Source: a virus
Taxonomy: Duplodnaviria; Heunggongvirae; Uroviricota; Caudoviricetes
Direction: 5' to 3' (one strand)
DNA length: 18,745 bases
Virus record (IMG/VR): IMGVR_UViG_2563366948_000001
Coordinates: 1-18,745 of that record
In this document: piece after piece, positions 1-18,745 of the stretch
Position numbering within the stretch: the stretch's first letter is position 1
Layout of the letters: every line of letters begins with the position of its first letter
Position numbers and translations under genes: made by a program
Notes under the pieces: generated by a model
Seen by the model: only the letters and a program-made list of their open reading frames with translations
Database searches by the model: none
What the model was told of the DNA's origin: nothing

Positions 1-1284
1 TTACTTCTTCGCCTCTGCAACCACTTTACTACCCACGCCGCGGTTATTGTATTCCCACATGCGGTTGTAGTTAGTGTCATTCAGATTGCGCTGTATTTCG
101 TCGTTATCATCTACGCTGCCGGTATTACCCGCAAACGGACGATTAGAGATCACCGCATCGGCCCACGGTTTAGCCGTGTTAAAACCTTCGTTGATGGCGC
201 TATCACGGATCACCACCTGACCGTTGGTATTGGCATCAACATCCAGCGAGCGGCCCAGTTGCGCCACACCATCACCGAAAGCATTGAAACGGCTGTTTAC
301 GGCGAGGAAACCGTAGTAAATGTTGGACAGCGTAGCCGGTGCAAACACATACGCTTCTTGCTGAGTACGTGAGTTCACCACGCGGAATTCGGTGTTATCG
401 AACACCACTGCGCCGCGACCAGAAACGATATCCACATCCCCTTCAATGTAGCTGTTGGTCACCAGCGTACGCGGCTGACGATTTGTTTCCAGACGGTTCT
501 GCACACCGCTGTTGGTGACAAAGAAGGTGTTCTGACGACCGAGAATGTTAACGTTGTTAATCTGTACCTGGTCACCATCAGTACGCAGTGCCACCGCCGG
601 ATGGTTACCTGCATCTACGCTATCGCCCAGCGTGTTTTCGATGGTCAGATTTTGCAGTTGCAGGCCATTGTTTTGTGACCAGAAGACCGCAGAGCAGAGA
701 ACACCGATACTGTCGCTGCGTTTGCTCTGGCAGCTATCGTACATATACCACGCTGGTTTACCTGGCATATATTTGCCGCGCGGGTTGACGTCGTGACGCC
801 AGTCGGCAGGGCTCATGCCACCATCAAGGGAAAGCCCAATCTTCACATCAATCGGTTTTTCACCTGTACCGTACAGAGTAATTCCACCCGGAGCGGCAGG
901 GACATATACCGTTCCCTGATACTCACCAGGCATCACGGCAATATACTGGCGCTTGTTGGTACGCTTGATAATTGCCGCATCTACCGCCGCCTGAATCGTG
1001 GTATGCGTTACACCTTGAGTGCCCGCCGGGCCGACAACAAAGTCAGGTTGCGCAGGCAGGGTAATCGGGGAAGGATTCCACGCTGCAGCACCTGGTGTCA
1101 GGGATGCAAAATAGTGTTGAGCATCGAAATTCTGCGCTTCTTTTGCCGACAGAATCGGGCGAGAAGAGGTACCAGGCGCGGTTTGATCAGAAGGACGTTG
1201 ATCGGGCGGGGTTGAGCTACAGGCGGTCAGCGTCACGCCAAAAGCCAATGCCAGCGCCAGACGGGAAACTGAAAATGTGTTCAC
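1..1284 (-). CDS. ybhC: YbhC-like outer-membrane lipoprotein (pectinesterase-family, putative acyl-CoA thioesterase); host gene flanking attB-lambda
   Basis: 427-aa ORF in track; N-terminal signal with lipobox (LTAC); sequence recognised as E. coli YbhC; start codon appears to be GTG. Confidence 0.8.
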   Translation of the reverse strand: MNTFSVSRLALALAFGVTLTACSSTPPDQRPSDQTAPGTSSRPILSAKEAQNFDAQHYFASLTPGAAAWNPSPITLPAQPDFVVGPAGTQGVTHTTIQAAVDAAIIKRTNKRQYIAVMPGEYQGTVYVPAAPGGITLYGTGEKPIDVKIGLSLDGGMSPADWRHDVNPRGKYMPGKPAWYMYDSCQSKRSDSIGVLCSAVFWSQNNGLQLQNLTIENTLGDSVDAGNHPAVALRTDGDQVQINNVNILGRQNTFFVTNSGVQNRLETNRQPRTLVTNSYIEGDVDIVSGRGAVVFDNTEFRVVNSRTQQEAYVFAPATLSNIYYGFLAVNSRFNAFGDGVAQLGRSLDVDANTNGQVVIRDSAINEGFNTAKPWADAVISNRPFAGNTGSVDDNDEIQRNLNDTNYNRMWEYNNRGVGSKVVAEAKK

Positions 1285-3074: not shown

Positions 3075-3728
3075 TCAAAGTGGAGGCTCTGGTAGCGGCA
3101 TCCAGTGAGTTACGTCATCCAAGATATTTCCTGATAAATACGTGAAAGCTCTATATTTTTTGTAATCAATTGGATTTACAACCCAGTTCCAATATGCGGC
3201 CACGATTTCACCTTGACTAAATGCCAGTAACATTTTGGTGTCTTCCGGCATTCGATCACTACAGCTTATCCAACCACCCGGAGTTACCGGAGAGTTGCCG
3301 CGTTCTTTAATGTGCAAGCGAGGCTCACCATCTTTTGGTTCAGGCCACTGGCGTTCCATGTTGATCTTCAATTTATTTTCCATAGCAGCGGTAATTTCAG
3401 CATCACTGATACCAGCACGGCGCTGTGCATCCCACAACAGAAACTGCATATCAGCCCACTCGCTAAGATCGTCTGGTTCGGCTGCGGCTTCCAGTGCCTC
3501 TTTTGAGAGATGTTTCAGCGGACCAATGGGGCCAACGCAGCCAAATGTGGAGTCAGACCATTTGGCATGCTCGTGGCGAATCTGTTCGCGTTCCAGTGAG
3601 GCGAGAGCGATTTTAAATGCTGTAAGCATGTGTGCTTGATCGTTGTCGAGTCCGAATGGCATTTCATCTCGTGCTGACTCAATACTGGTAATCGTATTTT
3701 GTAGCCATTCTTTGGTAAAAGTGCTCAT
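3075..3728 (-). CDS. Phage protein with MazG-like nucleotide pyrophosphohydrolase-type N-terminal region and DUF551-like C-terminal region
   Basis: 217 aa; central EALEAAAEPDDLSEWADMQFLLWDAQRRAGIS...AMENKLKIN resembles MazG-type helices; C-terminal ...THWMPLPEPP resembles the prophage DUF551 motif; ATGA overlap with upstream ORF. Confidence 0.6.
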   Translation of the reverse strand: MSTFTKEWLQNTITSIESARDEMPFGLDNDQAHMLTAFKIALASLEREQIRHEHAKWSDSTFGCVGPIGPLKHLSKEALEAAAEPDDLSEWADMQFLLWDAQRRAGISDAEITAAMENKLKINMERQWPEPKDGEPRLHIKERGNSPVTPGGWISCSDRMPEDTKMLLAFSQGEIVAAYWNWVVNPIDYKKYRAFTYLSGNILDDVTHWMPLPEPPL

Positions 3729-10643: not shown

Positions 10644-11726
10644 TTAGAACTGGTAAACCATACCTACAGCAACGATATCATCGGTAGCAACGCCAGATGC
10701 TTTCGTGAAATCGCTCTTATCAATCAGGTTGATTTTGTAATCAACAAAAGTGGACATATTTTTGTTGAAGTAATAGGTTGCACCTACATCAATATATTCA
10801 ACCAGGTCCTGATCACCCCACGCACCCAAGTCTTTTCCTTTAGATTGCAGGTAAGCAACGGACGGACGCAGACCGAAGTCGAACTGATATTGTGCAACTA
10901 CTTCGAAGTTTTGTGCTTTGTTGGCAATATGGTTATTACCAAAAACAGTCATGTTCTGGGTTTCAGAATAGGTGGTAGCCAGATAGATGTTGTTCGCATC
11001 ATATTTCAGACCAGCTGCCCATACTTCAGCATTTTGACCAGATGCATTCAGGCTGTTGTTACCGTAGATAACCTGATTATTAGTGCGGTCAGATTTAGCA
11101 TAGGTTGCACCTACACCGAATCCTTCATACTCATAAGTAGTGGAGAAACCGAAACCATCACCATTAGCTTCAGTTACGTCAGTGCGGTCATTTTTACCCT
11201 GATACTGAGCAGCAAAGTTCAGACCATCAACCAGACCAAAGAAGTCGTTGTTACGATAAGTTGCAACACCAGTGGTGCGACCAGTCATGAACACATCTGT
11301 TTGGGTCCAGGTATCGCCACCGAATTCTGGCAGAACGTCAGTCCACGCACCGATGTCGTATGCTACACCGTAGTTACGGCCGTAATCGATTGAGCCGTAG
11401 TCACCGAATTTCAGGCCTGCAAATGCAAGACGGGTTTTGTCTTTGGAGGAACCTTGAGATTCAGCGCGGTTGCCTTTGAATTCATATTCCCACTGACCGA
11501 AACCAGTCAGTTGATCGTTGATTTGGGTTTCACCTTTGAAGCCAAGACGGGCATAAGTAGTATCACCATCATCTGCATCATTAGAGGAGAAGTAGTGCTT
11601 AGCATTAACTTTCCCGTACAGATCCAGCTTGTTACTGTCTTTATTATAAATTTCAGCTGCCTGAGCAGACATCGCCATCAGTACTGATGCAGCTACAGCA
11701 GAAATTGCCACTGTTAATTTTTTCAT
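10644..11726 (-). CDS. nmpC: Phage-encoded general porin (OmpC/OmpF family; NmpC/Lc-like), apparently intact
   Basis: 360 aa with signal peptide [23 protein letters not shown], porin N-terminus [16 protein letters not shown] and C-terminal ...VYQF; sits between Q and the lysis genes on the opposite strand. Confidence 0.9.
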
Positions 11727-13012: not shown

Positions 13013-13470
13013 ACAGAGTAACCGCGATTATCTCCGCTCTGGTTATCTGCATCATCGTCTGCCTGTCATGGGCTGTTAATCATTACCGTGATAACGCCAT
13101 TACCTACAAAGCCCAGCGCGACAAAAATGCCAGAGAACTGAAGCTGGCGAACGCGGCAATTACTGACATGCAGATGCGTCAGCGTGATGTTGCTGCGCTC
13201 GATGCAAAATACACGAAGGAGTTAGCTGATGCGAAAGCTGAAAATGATGCTCTGCGTGATGATGTTGCCGCTGGTCGTCGTCGGTTGCACATCAAAGCAG
13301 TCTGTCAGTCAGTGCGTGAAGCCACCACCGCCTCCGGCGTGGATAATGCAGCCTCCCCCCGACTGGCAGACACCGCTGAACGGGATTATTTCACCCTCAG
13401 AGAGAGGCTGATCACTATGCAAAAACAACTGGAAGGAACCCAGAAGTATATTAATGAGCAGTGCAGATAG
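13009..13470 (+). CDS. rzpD: Rz i-spanin
   Basis: 153 aa from ATG overlapping the endolysin stop; N-terminal TM segment then coiled-coil-rich periplasmic domain. Confidence 0.85.
13229..13411 (+). CDS. rzoD: Rz1 o-spanin (lipoprotein), embedded in +1 frame within Rz
   Basis: 60 aa [23 protein letters not shown]... with lipobox LVVVGC and proline-rich mature region [15 protein letters not shown]; wholly inside Rz. Confidence 0.8.
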
Positions 13471-13501
13471 AGCTGCCCATATCGATGGGCAACTCATGCA
13501 A

Positions 13502-13795
13502 TTATTGTGAGCAATACACACGCGCTTCCAGCGGAGTATAAATGCCTAAAGTAATAAAACCGAGAAATCCATTTACGAATGTTTGCTGGGTTTCTGTTTT
13601 AACAACATTTTCTGCGCCGCCACAAATTTGGGCTGCATCAACAGTTTTCTCCTGTCCAATTCCCGAAACGAAGAAATGATGGGTGATGGTTTCCTTTGGT
13701 GTTACTGCTGTCGGTTTGTTTCCAACAGTAAACGTCTGTTGAGCACATCCTGTAATAAGCATTGCCAGAGCGGCAGAAAACAACATTTTTTTCAT
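13502..13795 (-). CDS. bor: Bor lipoprotein (serum-resistance, lysogenic conversion)
   Basis: 97 aa MKKMLFSAALAMLITGCAQQTFTVGNKPTAVTPKETITHHFFVSGIGQEK..., recognised as Bor; track ORF extends 16 codons upstream. Confidence 0.9.
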   Translation of the reverse strand: MKKMLFSAALAMLITGCAQQTFTVGNKPTAVTPKETITHHFFVSGIGQEKTVDAAQICGGAENVVKTETQQTFVNGFLGFITLGIYTPLEARVYCSQ

Positions 13796-13961
13796 CTTAT
13801 TATCCTGCATTGTTAAAAACGGCAGAATCCTATGTGACAACAATTAAACGATAGTTAAATGGATTGATGAAAATTAAAACTATATAGGTGGATGCTCAGC
13901 CTATTGGAGGAGGGGGGCACTCAGAATCCTGTGGAATGAAATAAACCGCTCTATCTGTCCA

Positions 13962-14186
13962 TTACCCTTTTAGCTGCGCTGTATCGTCGCCGTATTCCCG
14001 CATTAACCATGACCGTAGCCCGACGGGGAATTCCTTCTGCGTGAGTGTGCGGGAATAATCAAAAACGATGCACACCGGGTTTTTACCGCGTTTATGGTTC
14101 GCGGGGGTGTCCCTCATGCTCGCCAGTCCTGTGCGGGGGTGGAAGAAACAGGACGTGTATTCAGGTCTGTGTGACTGTGGTCGCAA
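13962..14186 (-). CDS. Hypothetical protein near the prophage late-region right end (YbcV-like?)
   Basis: 74-aa ORF MRPQSHRPEYTSCFFHPRTGLASMRDTPANHKRG...; weak recollection only. Confidence 0.3.
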   Translation of the reverse strand: MRPQSHRPEYTSCFFHPRTGLASMRDTPANHKRGKNPVCIVFDYSRTLTQKEFPVGLRSWLMREYGDDTAQLKG

Positions 14187-14271
14187 GACTTTTGTCGTTC
14201 AGCTATTAAATCCCATTACGAAGTAGACCAGAACGGCCAACGGGTCCTTTCCGGCGATCCGACAGGTTACG

Positions 14272-14283
14272 GGGCGGCGACCT
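14272..14283. other. cos: cosN cohesive-end sequence GGGCGGCGACCT; cosQ/cosB flank it within about 14200-14460
   Basis: Sequence CAGGTTACG-GGGCGGCGACCT-CGCGGGTTTTCGCTATTTATGAAAATTTTCCGG matches the lambda cos junction; lies 189 nt upstream of the nu1 ATG as in lambda. Confidence 0.85.
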
Positions 14284-14460
14284 CGCGGGTTTTCGCTATT
14301 TATGAAAATTTTCCGGTTTAAGGTGTTTCCGTTCTTCTTCGTCGTAACTTAATGTTTTTATTTAAAATACCCCCTGAAAAGAAAGGAAACGACAGGTGCT
14401 GAAAGCGGGCTTTTTGGCCTTTGTCGTTTCCTTTCTCTGTTTTTGGCCGTGGAATGAACA

Positions 14461-15915
14461 ATGGAAGTCAACAAAAAGCAGCTGGCTGACATTTTCGGTG
14501 CGAGTATCCGTACCATTCAGAACTGGCAGGAACAGGGAATGCCCGTTCTGCGAGGCGGTGGCAAGGGTAATGAGGTGCTTTATGACTCTGCCGCCGTTAT
14601 AAAATGGTATGCCGAAAGGGATGCTGAAATTGAGAACGAAAAGCTGCGCCGGGAGGTTGAAGAACTGCGCCAGGCCAGCGAGGCAGATCTCCAGCCAGGG
14701 ACTATTGAGTACGAACGCCATCGACTTACGCGTGCGCAGGCCGACGCACAGGAACTGAAGAATGCCAGAGACTCAGCTGAAGTGGTGGAAACCGCATTCT
14801 GTACTTTCGTGCTGTCGCGGATCGCAGGTGAAATTGCCAGTATTCTCGACGGGATCCCCCTGTCGGTGCAGCGGCGTTTTCCGGAACTGGAAAACCGACA
14901 TGTTGATTTCCTGAAACGGGATATCATCAAAGCCATGAACAAAGCAGCCGCGCTGGATGAACTGATAACCGAATCCCATCTCGGCAAGGAGCTGCTGGAA
15001 AAAGTCGAGCTGACGGAGGATAACGCCAGCAAACTGGAGGAGTTTTCGAAAGAGTGGCAGGACGCTAACGATAAGTGGAATGCCATGTGGGGCGTCAAAA
15101 TTGAGCAGACCAAAGACGGCAAACATTATGTCGCGGGTATTGGCCTCAGCATGGAGGACACGGAAGAAGGCAAGCTGAGCCAGTTTCTGGTTGCCGCTAA
15201 CCGTATCGCGTTTATTGACCCGGCAAACGGGAATGAAACGCCGATGTTTGTGGCGCAGGGCAATCAGATATTTATGAACGACGTGTTCCTGAAGCGCCTG
15301 ACGGCCCCGACCATTACCAGTGGTGGAAATCCACCGGCATTTTCCCTGACATCAGACGGAAAGCTGACCGCTAAAAATGCGGATATCAGTGGCAGTGTGA
15401 ATGCGAACGCCGGGACGCTCAACAATGTCACGGTAAATGAAAACTGTACGATTAAGGGCATGCTGGAGGCGACTCAGGTCAGAGGTGACTTCGTTAAAGC
15501 TGTATCCAAATCATTCCCGAAACAGGCTGGTACGTGGGGTAATACGGAAACACCAAACGGGACGGTTACAGTCACCATCAGCGATGATCATAACTTTGAC
15601 CGTCAAATCATTATTCCGCCCATTATCTTTAACGGAATAGCGTATAGCGATCCGGGAAGTGGTAATAACCCGGGAGGTACAAGATACACGGGTTATGGTT
15701 TTGAAGTTCGCAAAAACGGTGTATTAATCGCATCCAGAGAAACTAAAGGGGCCATTCCCGGTAGCTACAGTGCGGTTATTGATATGCCGAGTGGCAGGGG
15801 AAGCGTCACTCTGGAGTTTAAGGTTTTCCATAAAGGCAATCAGCGGGCAGGTAATATCACCGACTGTACGGTGATTGTGACCAAAAAAGCCGCTTCCGGC
15901 ATCAGTATTCGTTGA
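14461..15915 (+). CDS. In-frame fusion: terminase small subunit Nu1 (residues 1-169) joined to the C-terminal ~315 residues of tail-tip protein J
   Basis: N-terminus [34 protein letters not shown]...AALDELI is lambda Nu1; from [21 protein letters not shown]... onward it matches the lambda J C-terminal region; single 484-aa ORF. Confidence 0.85.
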
Positions 15916-15984
15916 AATTGTTATAACCCATATAAGGGCACCAGAAATGGTGCCTTTTTTATTGCAGAAAAGCGAGAGGTAATT

Positions 15985-16353
15985 ATGCGTAAACTTTATG
16001 CCGCCATTTTTTCCGCAGCCATTTGTCTGGCCGTATCCGGTGCGCCTGCATGGGCATCTGAACATCAGTCCACGCTGAGCGCGGGGTATCTTCATGCCTC
16101 GACGAACGTTCCCGGCAGCGATGATCTGAACGGGATTAACGTGAAATACCGTTATGAGTTTACGGACACACTGGGGCTGGTGACGTCATTCAGCTATGCA
16201 GGAGACAAGAATCGCCAGCTGACCCGTTACAGCGATATCCGCTGGCATGAAGATTCCGTTCGTAACCGCTGGTTCAGCGTAATGGCGGGGCCGTCTGTGC
16301 GCGTGAATGAATGGTTCAGCGCGTATGCGATGGCGGGTACCTTCTGCCCGTAA
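15985..16353 (+). pseudogene. lom: lom (Ail/Lom-family outer-membrane protein), truncated after codon 118
   Basis: MRKLYAAIFSAAICLAVSGAPAWASEHQSTLSAGYLHAS... matches lambda Lom up to ...WFSAYAMAG, then TFCP-stop; lambda Lom is ~206 aa. Confidence 0.8.
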
Positions 16354-17539
16354 GGTGAATGGTAAGGCGCTTTCAGCGGATATAACACTGACGCCGAAAG
16401 ATATTGGTACGCTTAACTCAACAACAATGTCATTCAGCGGTGGTGCTGGTTGGTTCAAATTAGCAACGGTAACCATGCCACAGGCGAGTTCTGTTGTTTC
16501 AATTACGTTGATTGGTGGCGCGGGATTTAACGTGGGGTCACCTCAACAGGCAGGTATATCTGAACTTGTTTTGCGTGCAGGTAATGGTAATCCGAAGGGG
16601 ATTACTGGTGCTTTATGGCAGCGCACATCGACAGGGTTTACAAATTTTGCCTGGGTCAATACATCTGGTGATACTTACGATATTTACGTTGCAATCGGAA
16701 ATTATGCGACTGGTGTAAATATTCAATGGGATTATACCAGTAATGCCAGCGTGACGATTCATACGTCACCAGCATATTCTGCTAATAAGCCGGAAGGGTT
16801 AACGGACGGTACAGTTTATTCACTCTATACGCCATCAGAGCAGTTTTATCCGCCTGGCGCACCAATCCCGTGGCCATCAGATACCGTTCCGTCTGGCTAT
16901 GCCCTGATGCAAGGGCAGACTTTTGACAAATCTGCATACCCGAAACTTGCAGCCGCTTATCCGTCAGGCGTGATCCCTGATATGCGTGGCTGGACGATTA
17001 AGGGCAAACCCGCCAGTGGTCGTGCCGTATTGTCTCAGGAACAGGACGGCATTAAATCGCACACCCACAGCGCCAGCGCATCCAGTACGGATTTGGGGAC
17101 GAAAAACACATCGTCGTTTGATTACGGAACCAAATCCACGAATAACACCGGGGCGCATACCCATAGTATTAGCGGGACTGCAAATAGTGCCGGTGCGCAC
17201 CAACACAAGAGTTCCGGTGCATTTGGTGGCACGAACACGAGCATTTTCCCTAATGGTTATACCGCGATTTCAAATCTAAGCGCGGGGATTATGAGCACAA
17301 CAAGCGGTAGTGGCCAGACTCGTAATGCAGGGAAGACATCATCAGATGGTGCTCATACCCACTCGCTGTCCGGCACTGCTGCAAGCGCAGGCGCACACGC
17401 ACATACTGTCGGTATTGGTGCTCATACGCACTCCGTTGCGATTGGCTCACATGGACACACCATCACCGTTAACGCTGCTGGTAACGCGGAAAACACCGTC
17501 AAAAACATCGCATTTAACTATATTGTGAGGCTTGCATAA
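16339..17539 (+). pseudogene. stf: Side tail fibre Stf, C-terminal ~400 codons only
   Basis: Open frame continuous with track ORF 16307-17539; contains tail-fibre-type His-rich repeats (GAHTHS, GAHQHK, GAHAHT, GSHGHT); no credible start; abuts truncated lom. Confidence 0.75.
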
Positions 17540-18120
17540 TGGCATTCAGAATGAGTGAACAAGCACGGACCATAAAAATTTATAATCTGCTGGCCGGAAC
17601 TAATGAATTTATTGGTGAAGGTGACGCATATATTCCGCCTCATACAGGTCTGCCAGCAAACAGTACCGATATTGCACCGCCAGATATTCCGGCTGGCTTC
17701 GTGGCTGTTTTCAACAGTGATGAGTCATCGTGGCATCTCGTTGAAGATCATCGGGGTAAAACGGTTTATGACGTGGCTTCCGGCGATGCGTTATTTATTT
17801 CTGAACTCGGTCCGTTACCGGAAAATGTTACCTGGTTATCGCCGGGAGGGGAGTTTCAGAAGTGGAACGGCACAGCCTGGGTGAAGGATACGGAAGCAGA
17901 AAAACTGTTCCGGATCCGGGAGGCGGAAGAAACAAAAAACAGCCTGATGCAGGTAGCCAGTGAGCATATAGCGCCGCTTCAGGATGCTGTGGATCTGGAA
18001 ATCGCAACGGAGGAAGAAACCTTGTTGCTGGAAGCCTGGAAAAAGTATCGGGTGTTGCTGAACCGTGTTGATACATCAACTGCACCGGATATTGAATGGC
18101 CAGTAGCACCTATAGGGTAA
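17539..18120 (+). CDS. tfa: Tail fibre assembly protein Tfa
   Basis: 193 aa [54 protein letters not shown]..., recognised as lambda Tfa; start overlaps stf stop. Confidence 0.9.
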
Positions 18121-18237: not shown

Positions 18238-18256
18238 GTACGGTAATGACTCCAAC

Positions 18257-18634
18257 TTATTGATAGTGTTTTATGTTCAGATAATGCCCGATGACTTTGT
18301 CATGCAGCTCCACCGATTTTGAGAACGACAGCGACTTCCGTCCCAGCCGTGCCAGGTGCTGCCTCAGATTCAGGTTATGCCGCTCAATTCGCTGCGTATA
18401 TCGCTTGCTGATTACGTGCAGCTTTCCCTTCAGGCGGGATTCATACAGCGGCCAGCCATCCGTCATCCATATCACCACGTCAAAGGGTGACAGCAGGCTC
18501 ATAAGACGCCCCAGCGTCGCCATAGTGCGTTCACCGAATACGTGCGCAACAACCGTCTTCCGGAGACTGTCATACGCGTAAAACAGCCAGCGCTGGCGCG
18601 ATTTAGCCCCGACATAGCCCCACTGTTCGTCCAT
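18257..18634 (-). CDS. insB: IS1 transposase InsB segment (made in vivo as InsAB' by -1 frameshift)
   Basis: 125-aa [51 protein letters not shown]..., recognised as IS1 InsB. Confidence 0.9.
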
Positions 18635-18678
18635 TTCCGCGCAGACGATGACGTCACTGCCCGGCTGTATGCGCGAGG

Positions 18679-18745
18679 TTACCGACTGCGGCCTGAGTTT
18701 TTTAAGTGACGTAAAATCGTGTTGAGGCCAACGCCCATAATGCGG
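18679..18745 (-). CDS. insA: IS1 InsA, 3' portion only (5' end beyond window)
   Basis: Minus-strand reading ...[18 protein letters not shown]-stop with stop at 18679-18681; contains the slippery A6C site. Confidence 0.8.

Follow-up and report, generated by a model that had tools for sequence, protein, structure and literature searches.

Does the last domain of a truncated J gene in a defective prophage come from a phage with a receptor other than lambda's, and can it still do anything where it lies? The question was raised by an open reading frame at 14461..15915 (+) of the window, by which we mean the whole 18,745-nt stretch of DNA that was analysed. A first-pass annotation had suggested that the last ~150 residues encoded there are a divergent host-range allele of J.

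The window is a defective lambdoid prophage at att-lambda. The gene ybhC lies at 1-1284 (-) and is followed by a lambda-type integrase gene, recombination and replication genes, the Q region, a porin gene, lysis genes, bor and cos. The 484-residue product of the reading frame is an in-frame fusion of lambda Nu1 residues 1-169 to the last ~316 residues of J. The features of this part of the window, and comparable junctions found elsewhere, are collected in Table 1.

Table 1. Features of the fusion gene and its surroundings in the window, followed by nu1 junctions in other prophage remnants. A slash marks the break at a junction; "locus" gives the position in the other strain's own locus.
Feature	Position	Strand	Evidence	Junction partner
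cosN cohesive-end sequence GGGCGGCGACCT (= lambda nt 1-12), left end of the packaging and morphogenesis arm	14272..14283	+	BLASTN and sequence reading	
nu1' (small terminase subunit, codons 1-169, last 12 C-terminal codons missing)	14461..14967	+	Pfam, PDB, alignment	
Deletion junction nu1/J with 4-bp microhomology GATA, ...CTGATA / ACCGAATCC	14964..14967	+	Three-way DNA alignment, BLASTN coordinates	J codon ~822
J' conserved part (lambda J residues ~822-982): end of helical shaft, beta-prism central fibre, linker	14965..15447	+		
J C-terminal receptor-binding domain (RBD), h434 allele class, stop codon included	15448..15915	+		
Allele-specific long loop, aa 354-365, predicted OmpC contact in the 434 class	15520..15555	+	Indel-bearing alignment block	
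Allele-specific hairpin, aa 396-406	15646..15678	+	Alignment mapping to phi330 hairpin E953-S962	
Intrinsic terminator after J, 10-bp stem and T-run	15934..15965 (scan also 15934-15957)	+	Terminator scan	
lom' (Ail/Lom gene, N-terminal ~119 codons, 434/PhiR49_1 type)	15985..16339	+	Pfam Ail_Lom, 1-119 of 199	
'stf (C-terminal part, side tail fibre) and tfa (tail fibre assembly)	16340..18120	+	Pfam Collar, Phage_fiber, Caudo_TAP	
E. coli B REL606 DLP12 junction, ...CTGATACC / CGAACACGG	locus ~3541-3545			lambda J nt 16139, codon ~212
O169:H41 strain F9792 att-lambda remnant, ...CTGATA / TCGGTGCC	locus ~3668			phi458-type J near codon 880
Strain 18-4 junction, ...CTGATA / AAGCGCAGG	locus ~2698			Tail-fibre gene
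ECDA1023, fifth remnant, break 22 nt further downstream				

The two halves of the fusion were identified separately. Window positions 14272-14967 correspond to lambda nt 1-697 with 98.4% identity in BLASTN. The Nu1 part matches the Pfam profile Phage_Nu1 over aa 1-164 (E 1e-99), matches Nu1 entries in the PDB and aligns to lambda nu1. The GATA at the junction is common to nu1 (lambda nt 694-697) and J (lambda nt ~17965-17968), and the junction joins lambda nt ~697 to nt ~17965, so that ~17.3 kb, from gene A through J codon ~821, are absent. On the J side, residues 192-319 match Phage_Tail_Tip (PF09327), which means that the beta-prism precedes the RBD. The whole 316-residue stretch matches lambda J in HMMER with E = 4e-126, and its divergence is restricted to the last domain.

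How sharp is this divergence? The peptide quoted in the first-pass annotation is present in the reading frame, and nt 15448, where the divergent domain had been said to start, is the first base of codon 330. Residues 168-329 share 152/162 positions (93.8%) with lambda J (J02459), while residues 330-484 share 59/161 (36.6%; 36.9% by tblastn). The described contrast is thus real, and the word "near-identical" is slightly generous for an upstream part at 94%. High identity to lambda J across the entire C-terminus, the finding that would speak against a divergent allele, was looked for and is absent. On the DNA level the identity to lambda is 95.2% over 14965-15279, 91.1% over 15280-15447 and 49.6% over 15448-15915. 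In a sliding window it falls from >90% to ~50% between 15436 and 15495, with the break at ~15450-15470, so that a start at 15448 is accurate to within ~20 nt, and BLASTN found no lambda similarity past nt 15471. The contrast between the J' part and the RBD is far beyond chance.

The divergent domain has close relatives. A sequence search with aa 330-484 found 434-type J genes nearest. The RBD shares 149/155 residues (96.1%) with J of phage 434 (OL657226, CPT_434_21), and J' residues 168-329 share 94.4%. The six differences from 434 in the RBD are S351A, Q355K, A356V, N366D, S396D and R446G. Two phages are closer still: phi458 is 100% identical in RBD protein sequence, its DNA differences all being synonymous, and PhiR49_1 is 99.4% identical, with 99.6% DNA identity over the whole J fragment. 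In a DNA search, the full length of that fragment aligned to 434, 434B and the laboratory hybrid lambda h434 imm21 with 94.2-94.4% identity. The window is colinear with 434 over 14964-16339 in one BLASTN segment of 1376 bp (95.3%), which runs through the J terminator into lom.

The tblastn search of the phage collection showed that this is a discrete class. Among its 243 records, 74 lie at 92.9-100% and 169 at 45% or below, with none in between. PhiR49_1, Ayreon, ev099, Perceval and ~30 O157:H7 Stx1a- or Stx2c-converting phages form the 99.4% group, and the top group also holds cdtI, mEp332, mEp460 and Stx2a_WGPS6. Mathieu et al. describe four J clusters, and the h434 hybrid was sequenced by Feiss et al. 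(PMC9119081). By sequence, then, the RBD is the classical h434 host-range allele. The proposal that it derives from a phage with a receptor other than lambda's is supported by the 434 match, which points to OmpC. The first-pass annotation did not recognise the allele as a classical and very common one; it is already known and not novel.

Membership in other J classes was considered and rejected. The RBD does not belong to the LamB-specific allele of lambda and phi21, as its identity to the lambda RBD is 36.6% in protein and 49.6% in DNA. It is not the allele of A8 (PDB 9wca, the same allele as phi330), to which it is only 42.4% identical; phi330, whose use of OmpC was established by knockout and complementation, falls with A8 for the same reason. 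As for the engineered gpJ chimeras A8 and 1A2 (Nature 2024), the supplement contains no DNA strings from the window, and the 1A2 C-terminus given there is clearly different (the supplement is OCR text with dropped bases, so no exact figure is given).

The allele is also frequent in E. coli. Its DNA, taken as the part without lambda homology (15472-15915), was found in 2111 of 5426 complete E. coli genomes (39%); in 727 records the identity reaches at least 99%. At the protein level, a search met this allele in partial entries from E. coli, E. albertii and Shigella by the thousand. The domain is thus ordinary, and is best annotated as a truncated 434 (OmpC)-class J within a nu1'-'J fusion pseudogene and not as a novel variant.

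The fold was examined next to the known structures of J. The Pfam profile Ig_GpJ_C (PF12421) matches aa 348-483 over profile positions 1-134 of 135, with 92 bits against a cut-off of 26.2. AlphaFold2 modelled aa 330-484 as an all-beta domain with mean pLDDT 79 and pTM 0.74. The alignment behind this model was shallow, since the homologue search gave mainly partial proteins of the same allele; the model is adequate nonetheless. The top four PDB matches in Foldseek were 9wcb (A8 gpJ713 bound to OmpC, TM 0.76, 42% identity), 8xck (lambda J closed, TM 0.75, 36%), 9wca (A8 closed) and 8xcj (lambda J bound to LamB). These four lie at TM 0.75-0.76 and E ~1e-11 to 1e-12, and the next match has E 3e-4. 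The structural comparison with the lambda J RBD thus gives the same Ig-like fold, and among J RBDs the domain is an ordinary family member. In sequence it stands between the two solved examples, lambda and A8, and falls in neither class.

The place where the divergence starts is the boundary of a module. A 45-residue linker in front of the RBD is near-invariant across lambda, 434, phi458 and phi330. Within J', phi458 and phi330 share only this linker with the window's protein before the RBD and diverge upstream of it. In phi458 the RBD is 100% and the linker 98% identical to the window, while residues 168-272 are only 44% identical, which is the lambda pattern reversed. The linker is where RBDs are exchanged in natural recombinants. 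The engineered gpJ chimeras of Brodel et al. exchange RBDs at the same place (PMC11338833), and the window illustrates in textbook fashion how modules are swapped at this conserved linker of J.

This bears on the idea that the divergence is pseudogene decay of a lambda J after the prophage was crippled. The gene is indeed truncated, and the prophage around it is defective and has undergone two or more internal deletions. The divergent part is, however, 100% identical in protein to J of the plaque-forming phage phi458, and the intact J of E. coli KE58 has 100% DNA identity over 14964-16100. All differences from lambda preserve the frame, including four indel blocks, and the abrupt start of the divergence at the conserved linker is a pattern of module exchange and not of drift. 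Since the divergent part is identical to intact, functional J genes, decay is already refuted and we regard it as virtually impossible.

Which receptor would this RBD have bound? Phage 434 uses OmpC, and 434 J placed in lambda shifts the receptor from LamB to OmpC (PMC3509688, PMC11101478, PMC12502783). Given the 96% identity to 434, we infer that this sub-allele very probably uses OmpC as well. In phi330, a hairpin at E953-S962 is predicted to enter the OmpC barrel (PMC12502783), and for the 434 class a loop contact with OmpC has been stated on the basis of AlphaFold3 (PMC12502783). Four of the six substitutions relative to 434 lie in or beside the loops at aa 354-365 and 396-406, which align with these AlphaFold3-predicted contacts. 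OmpC is polymorphic, and other gpJ alleles distinguish OmpC variants (PMC11338833). Since the substitutions lie near the predicted contact loops of a domain that meets a polymorphic porin, the sub-allele may be tuned to another OmpC variant than 434; its specificity for OmpC variants, and even the receptor itself, could differ from those of 434.

A different reading is that the allele, though divergent, is still specific for LamB or binds a third receptor (OmpF or FadL, for instance); no switch to OmpC would then be implied. The receptor of the exact sub-allele rests on sequence comparison, porin use in lambda and phi21 can change by single J mutations (PMC11336670), and the substitutions near the predicted contacts leave some room for it. 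The literature gave no receptor assignment for phi458, PhiR49_1, Ayreon, ev099, mEp332, mEp460 or the Stx1a and Stx2c phages, and a large receptor screen from 2026 covers J classes other than the window's. Some phages with the sub-allele have been grown on K-12 hosts (phi458 on MC1061, Ayreon on K12). The 434 allele's dependence on OmpC and its transfer to lambda are textbook results, however, and the RBD is 96% identical to it, against only 37% for lambda and 21, which bind LamB. Its loop lengths are also those of 434 and not those of lambda. We consider LamB or a third receptor unlikely. Phage phi21 was at one point considered as an OmpC user and was rejected, as it naturally binds LamB and the DNA of its J gene has 94% identity to that of lambda (PMC11336670).

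The porin gene of the window, at 10644-11726 (-), is of the Lc/NmpC type, with 90.1% amino acid identity to PA-2 Lc and 90.5% to the 434 porin. Such a porin gene occurs together with an h434-type RBD in ev099, Perceval, PhiR49_1, PhiR26_1, PhiR29_1, Kati, mEp332 and 434. The pairing is not exclusive, as some porin carriers have other J classes. Work in the Schnaitman laboratory (1975-1986) reportedly found that PA-2 adsorbs to OmpC and that Lc expression lowers OmpC in lysogens, and a phage that combines an OmpC-specific J with an Lc-type porin would therefore be biologically sensible, as one that targets OmpC and also alters the porins of its host.

Downstream of J the window again follows 434 for a short distance. 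The terminator after J is conserved with the annotated 434 terminator at the colinear position. At ~16339, inside lom, colinearity with both 434 and PhiR49_1 stops and the 3' part of stf begins, which marks a second internal deletion. The 'stf and tfa genes match lambda 21238-22535 at 87-94% DNA identity and are remnants of the same tail arm. A mechanically listed open reading frame at 16307-17539 spans the lom'/'stf junction ('stf 16340-17539). An IS1 copy (18241-18745), with an InsB reading frame at 18257-18634 (-), follows tfa directly and closes the window on the right. An IS1 also adjoins the tail-fibre genes of phi458, with 92% DNA identity and in the opposite orientation.

The allele is common and the junction is not. 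The exact nu1/J junction was found in 0/5426 complete E. coli genomes and in 0/185,579 GTDB species-representative genomes, and no complete E. coli genome covered 80% or more of either the window or the junction probe. The left 14.97 kb of the window matches att-lambda prophages of several strains at 97.6-98.5%.

The breakpoint on the nu1 side recurs. A break at lambda nt ~697, directly after CTGATA and 14 nt upstream of the A start codon, was seen in at least four different junctions (Table 1). E. coli records matching lambda 500-900 were sampled at even intervals; five of those sampled had no intact nu1-A junction, and four of these five end at lambda nt 697-701. Strain C21, an intact relative, reads as lambda does at the breakpoint. 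The closest parallel is DLP12 of E. coli B REL606 (ECB_RS02680/02685), also a defective lambdoid prophage in which a deletion at a microhomology has brought nu1 directly up against a 3' portion of J. Its nu1 breakpoint lies within 2 nt of the window's; it differs in using a TACC microhomology, in being out of frame and in lying at another chromosomal locus. A DNA hairpin at the nu1 breakpoint was not supported (DNA fold z = +0.59), and the likeness of the breakpoint to cosN, to the att core or to invertase crossover sites was by eye too weak. The recurrence might reflect a mechanistic, site-specific hot spot for deletion, selection that retains Nu1 while gpA is lost, or nested events. If it is mechanistic, the recurrent breakpoint is the more interesting lead.

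The search for nu1-A sequence also returned ~25 assemblies of unrelated bacteria (Marinifilum, Bradyrhizobium, Kitasatospora, Paenibacillus, Shewanella, Pseudomonas and others) that hold the exact lambda nu1-A sequence. It lies there on tiny contigs or on contigs of ~48.4-48.5 kb, and is almost certainly contamination with lambda control DNA.

Could the fusion protein itself have been selected? A chimera of Nu1(1-169) and J(822-end) might be expressed and kept, for example as a cos-binding decoy against the packaging of superinfecting lambda-like phages, with the J part as a trimeriser. The 484-codon frame is intact, the DNA-binding domain of Nu1 is complete, and at least four different prophage remnants retain Nu1 up to one and the same nucleotide, a possible sign of selection for it. 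The J part is not the conserved element, however, because at the other nu1 junctions (REL606, F9792 and strain 18-4) either the frame is lost or the partner is another gene. For the same reason the in-frame state of Nu1-J' is most simply read as a one-in-three accident. The exact junction is missing from both genome sets named above, and a scan of 13400-16400 found no sigma-70-like promoter. In an intact phage the J region is transcribed only from the late promoter, and read-through late transcription could conceivably express the fusion frame. The remnant also appears too recent to carry any signature of selection: with the KE58 match at 100% and the differences from phi458 in the RBD all synonymous, it is recent and undecayed, and therefore no selection signal can be read from it. 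Expression and selection of the chimera strike us as extremely improbable.

The most probable account is instead that of a relic. A functional J has ~1130 aa and stands in the tail cluster H-M-L-K-I-J; the window holds only the equivalent of J ~822-1137. It lacks residues 1-~821 of J, with the hub and FNIII domains, and likewise the other tail genes and every head gene. Because these are gone, the RBD cannot reach a virion. In an intact virion, a trimer of the Ig-like RBD at the tip of the central tail fibre would dock on the trimeric porin OmpC, as the lambda RBD does on LamB. The allele would have been brought in by a PhiR49_1/434-like Lambdavirus with an Lc/NmpC-type porin, which lysogenised at att-lambda beside ybhC. 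A later deletion, mediated by the GATA microhomology, would have removed the ~17.3 kb between nu1 codon 169 and J codon ~822 and fused Nu1 in frame to the last ~316 J residues, and a second deletion would have fused lom' to 'stf. The RBD that is left would be a recent, undecayed relic that is not assemblable into anything and probably has no function in situ.

Its only plausible activity would be to pass OmpC specificity on to incoming lambdoid phages through homologous recombination, and the RBD may be at most such a reservoir. Lambda shares 508 bp (92.9%) with the window on the upstream side and only distant stf/tfa homology downstream; 434/PhiR49_1-like phages share much more with the window than lambda does. 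Defective prophages of this kind store intact specificity modules that are potentially available to incoming phages. It is very unlikely that the remnant is not inert, in the sense that the Nu1-J' chimera is made and disturbs cos recognition or packaging in superinfecting lambda-like phages, or that the cassette is kept because LamB-specific lambdoid phages passing through the host can gain OmpC specificity from it by recombining at the J linker. To the account as a whole, of a 434-type, OmpC-directed RBD left as a deletion relic and possible recombination donor, we assign a probability of about 0.85.

The locus can be placed among the known J systems as follows. Phage 434 is the reference: its J has the same RBD loop lengths, the same terminator and the same downstream lom as the window. 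It differs in that 434 J has 1137 residues, whereas the window keeps only the last ~316, fused to Nu1, and no virion function is possible. PhiR49_1, phi458, Ayreon, ev099, Perceval and the O157:H7 Stx1a and Stx2c phages carry the same sub-allele, with RBDs at 99.4-100% amino acid identity; unlike the window, they carry it in a full-length J, in plaque-forming phages or complete prophages. The LamB-specific lambda J RBD (PDB 8xcj/8xck) belongs to the same Pfam family and has the same Ig-like fold, the same position after the beta-prism and the same linker, but its receptor-contacting loops differ in length from those of the window and its receptor is LamB. The RBD of A8 gpJ and phi330 (PDB 9wca/9wcb, with OmpC) shares the fold at TM 0.76, with 42% amino acid identity and other loop lengths. 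Both A8/phi330 and the Eligo 1A2 chimera are OmpC-binding J alleles grafted onto lambda J at the same linker, and they stand apart from the window as separate allele classes that reach OmpC with different loops, with a clearly different C-terminus in 1A2.
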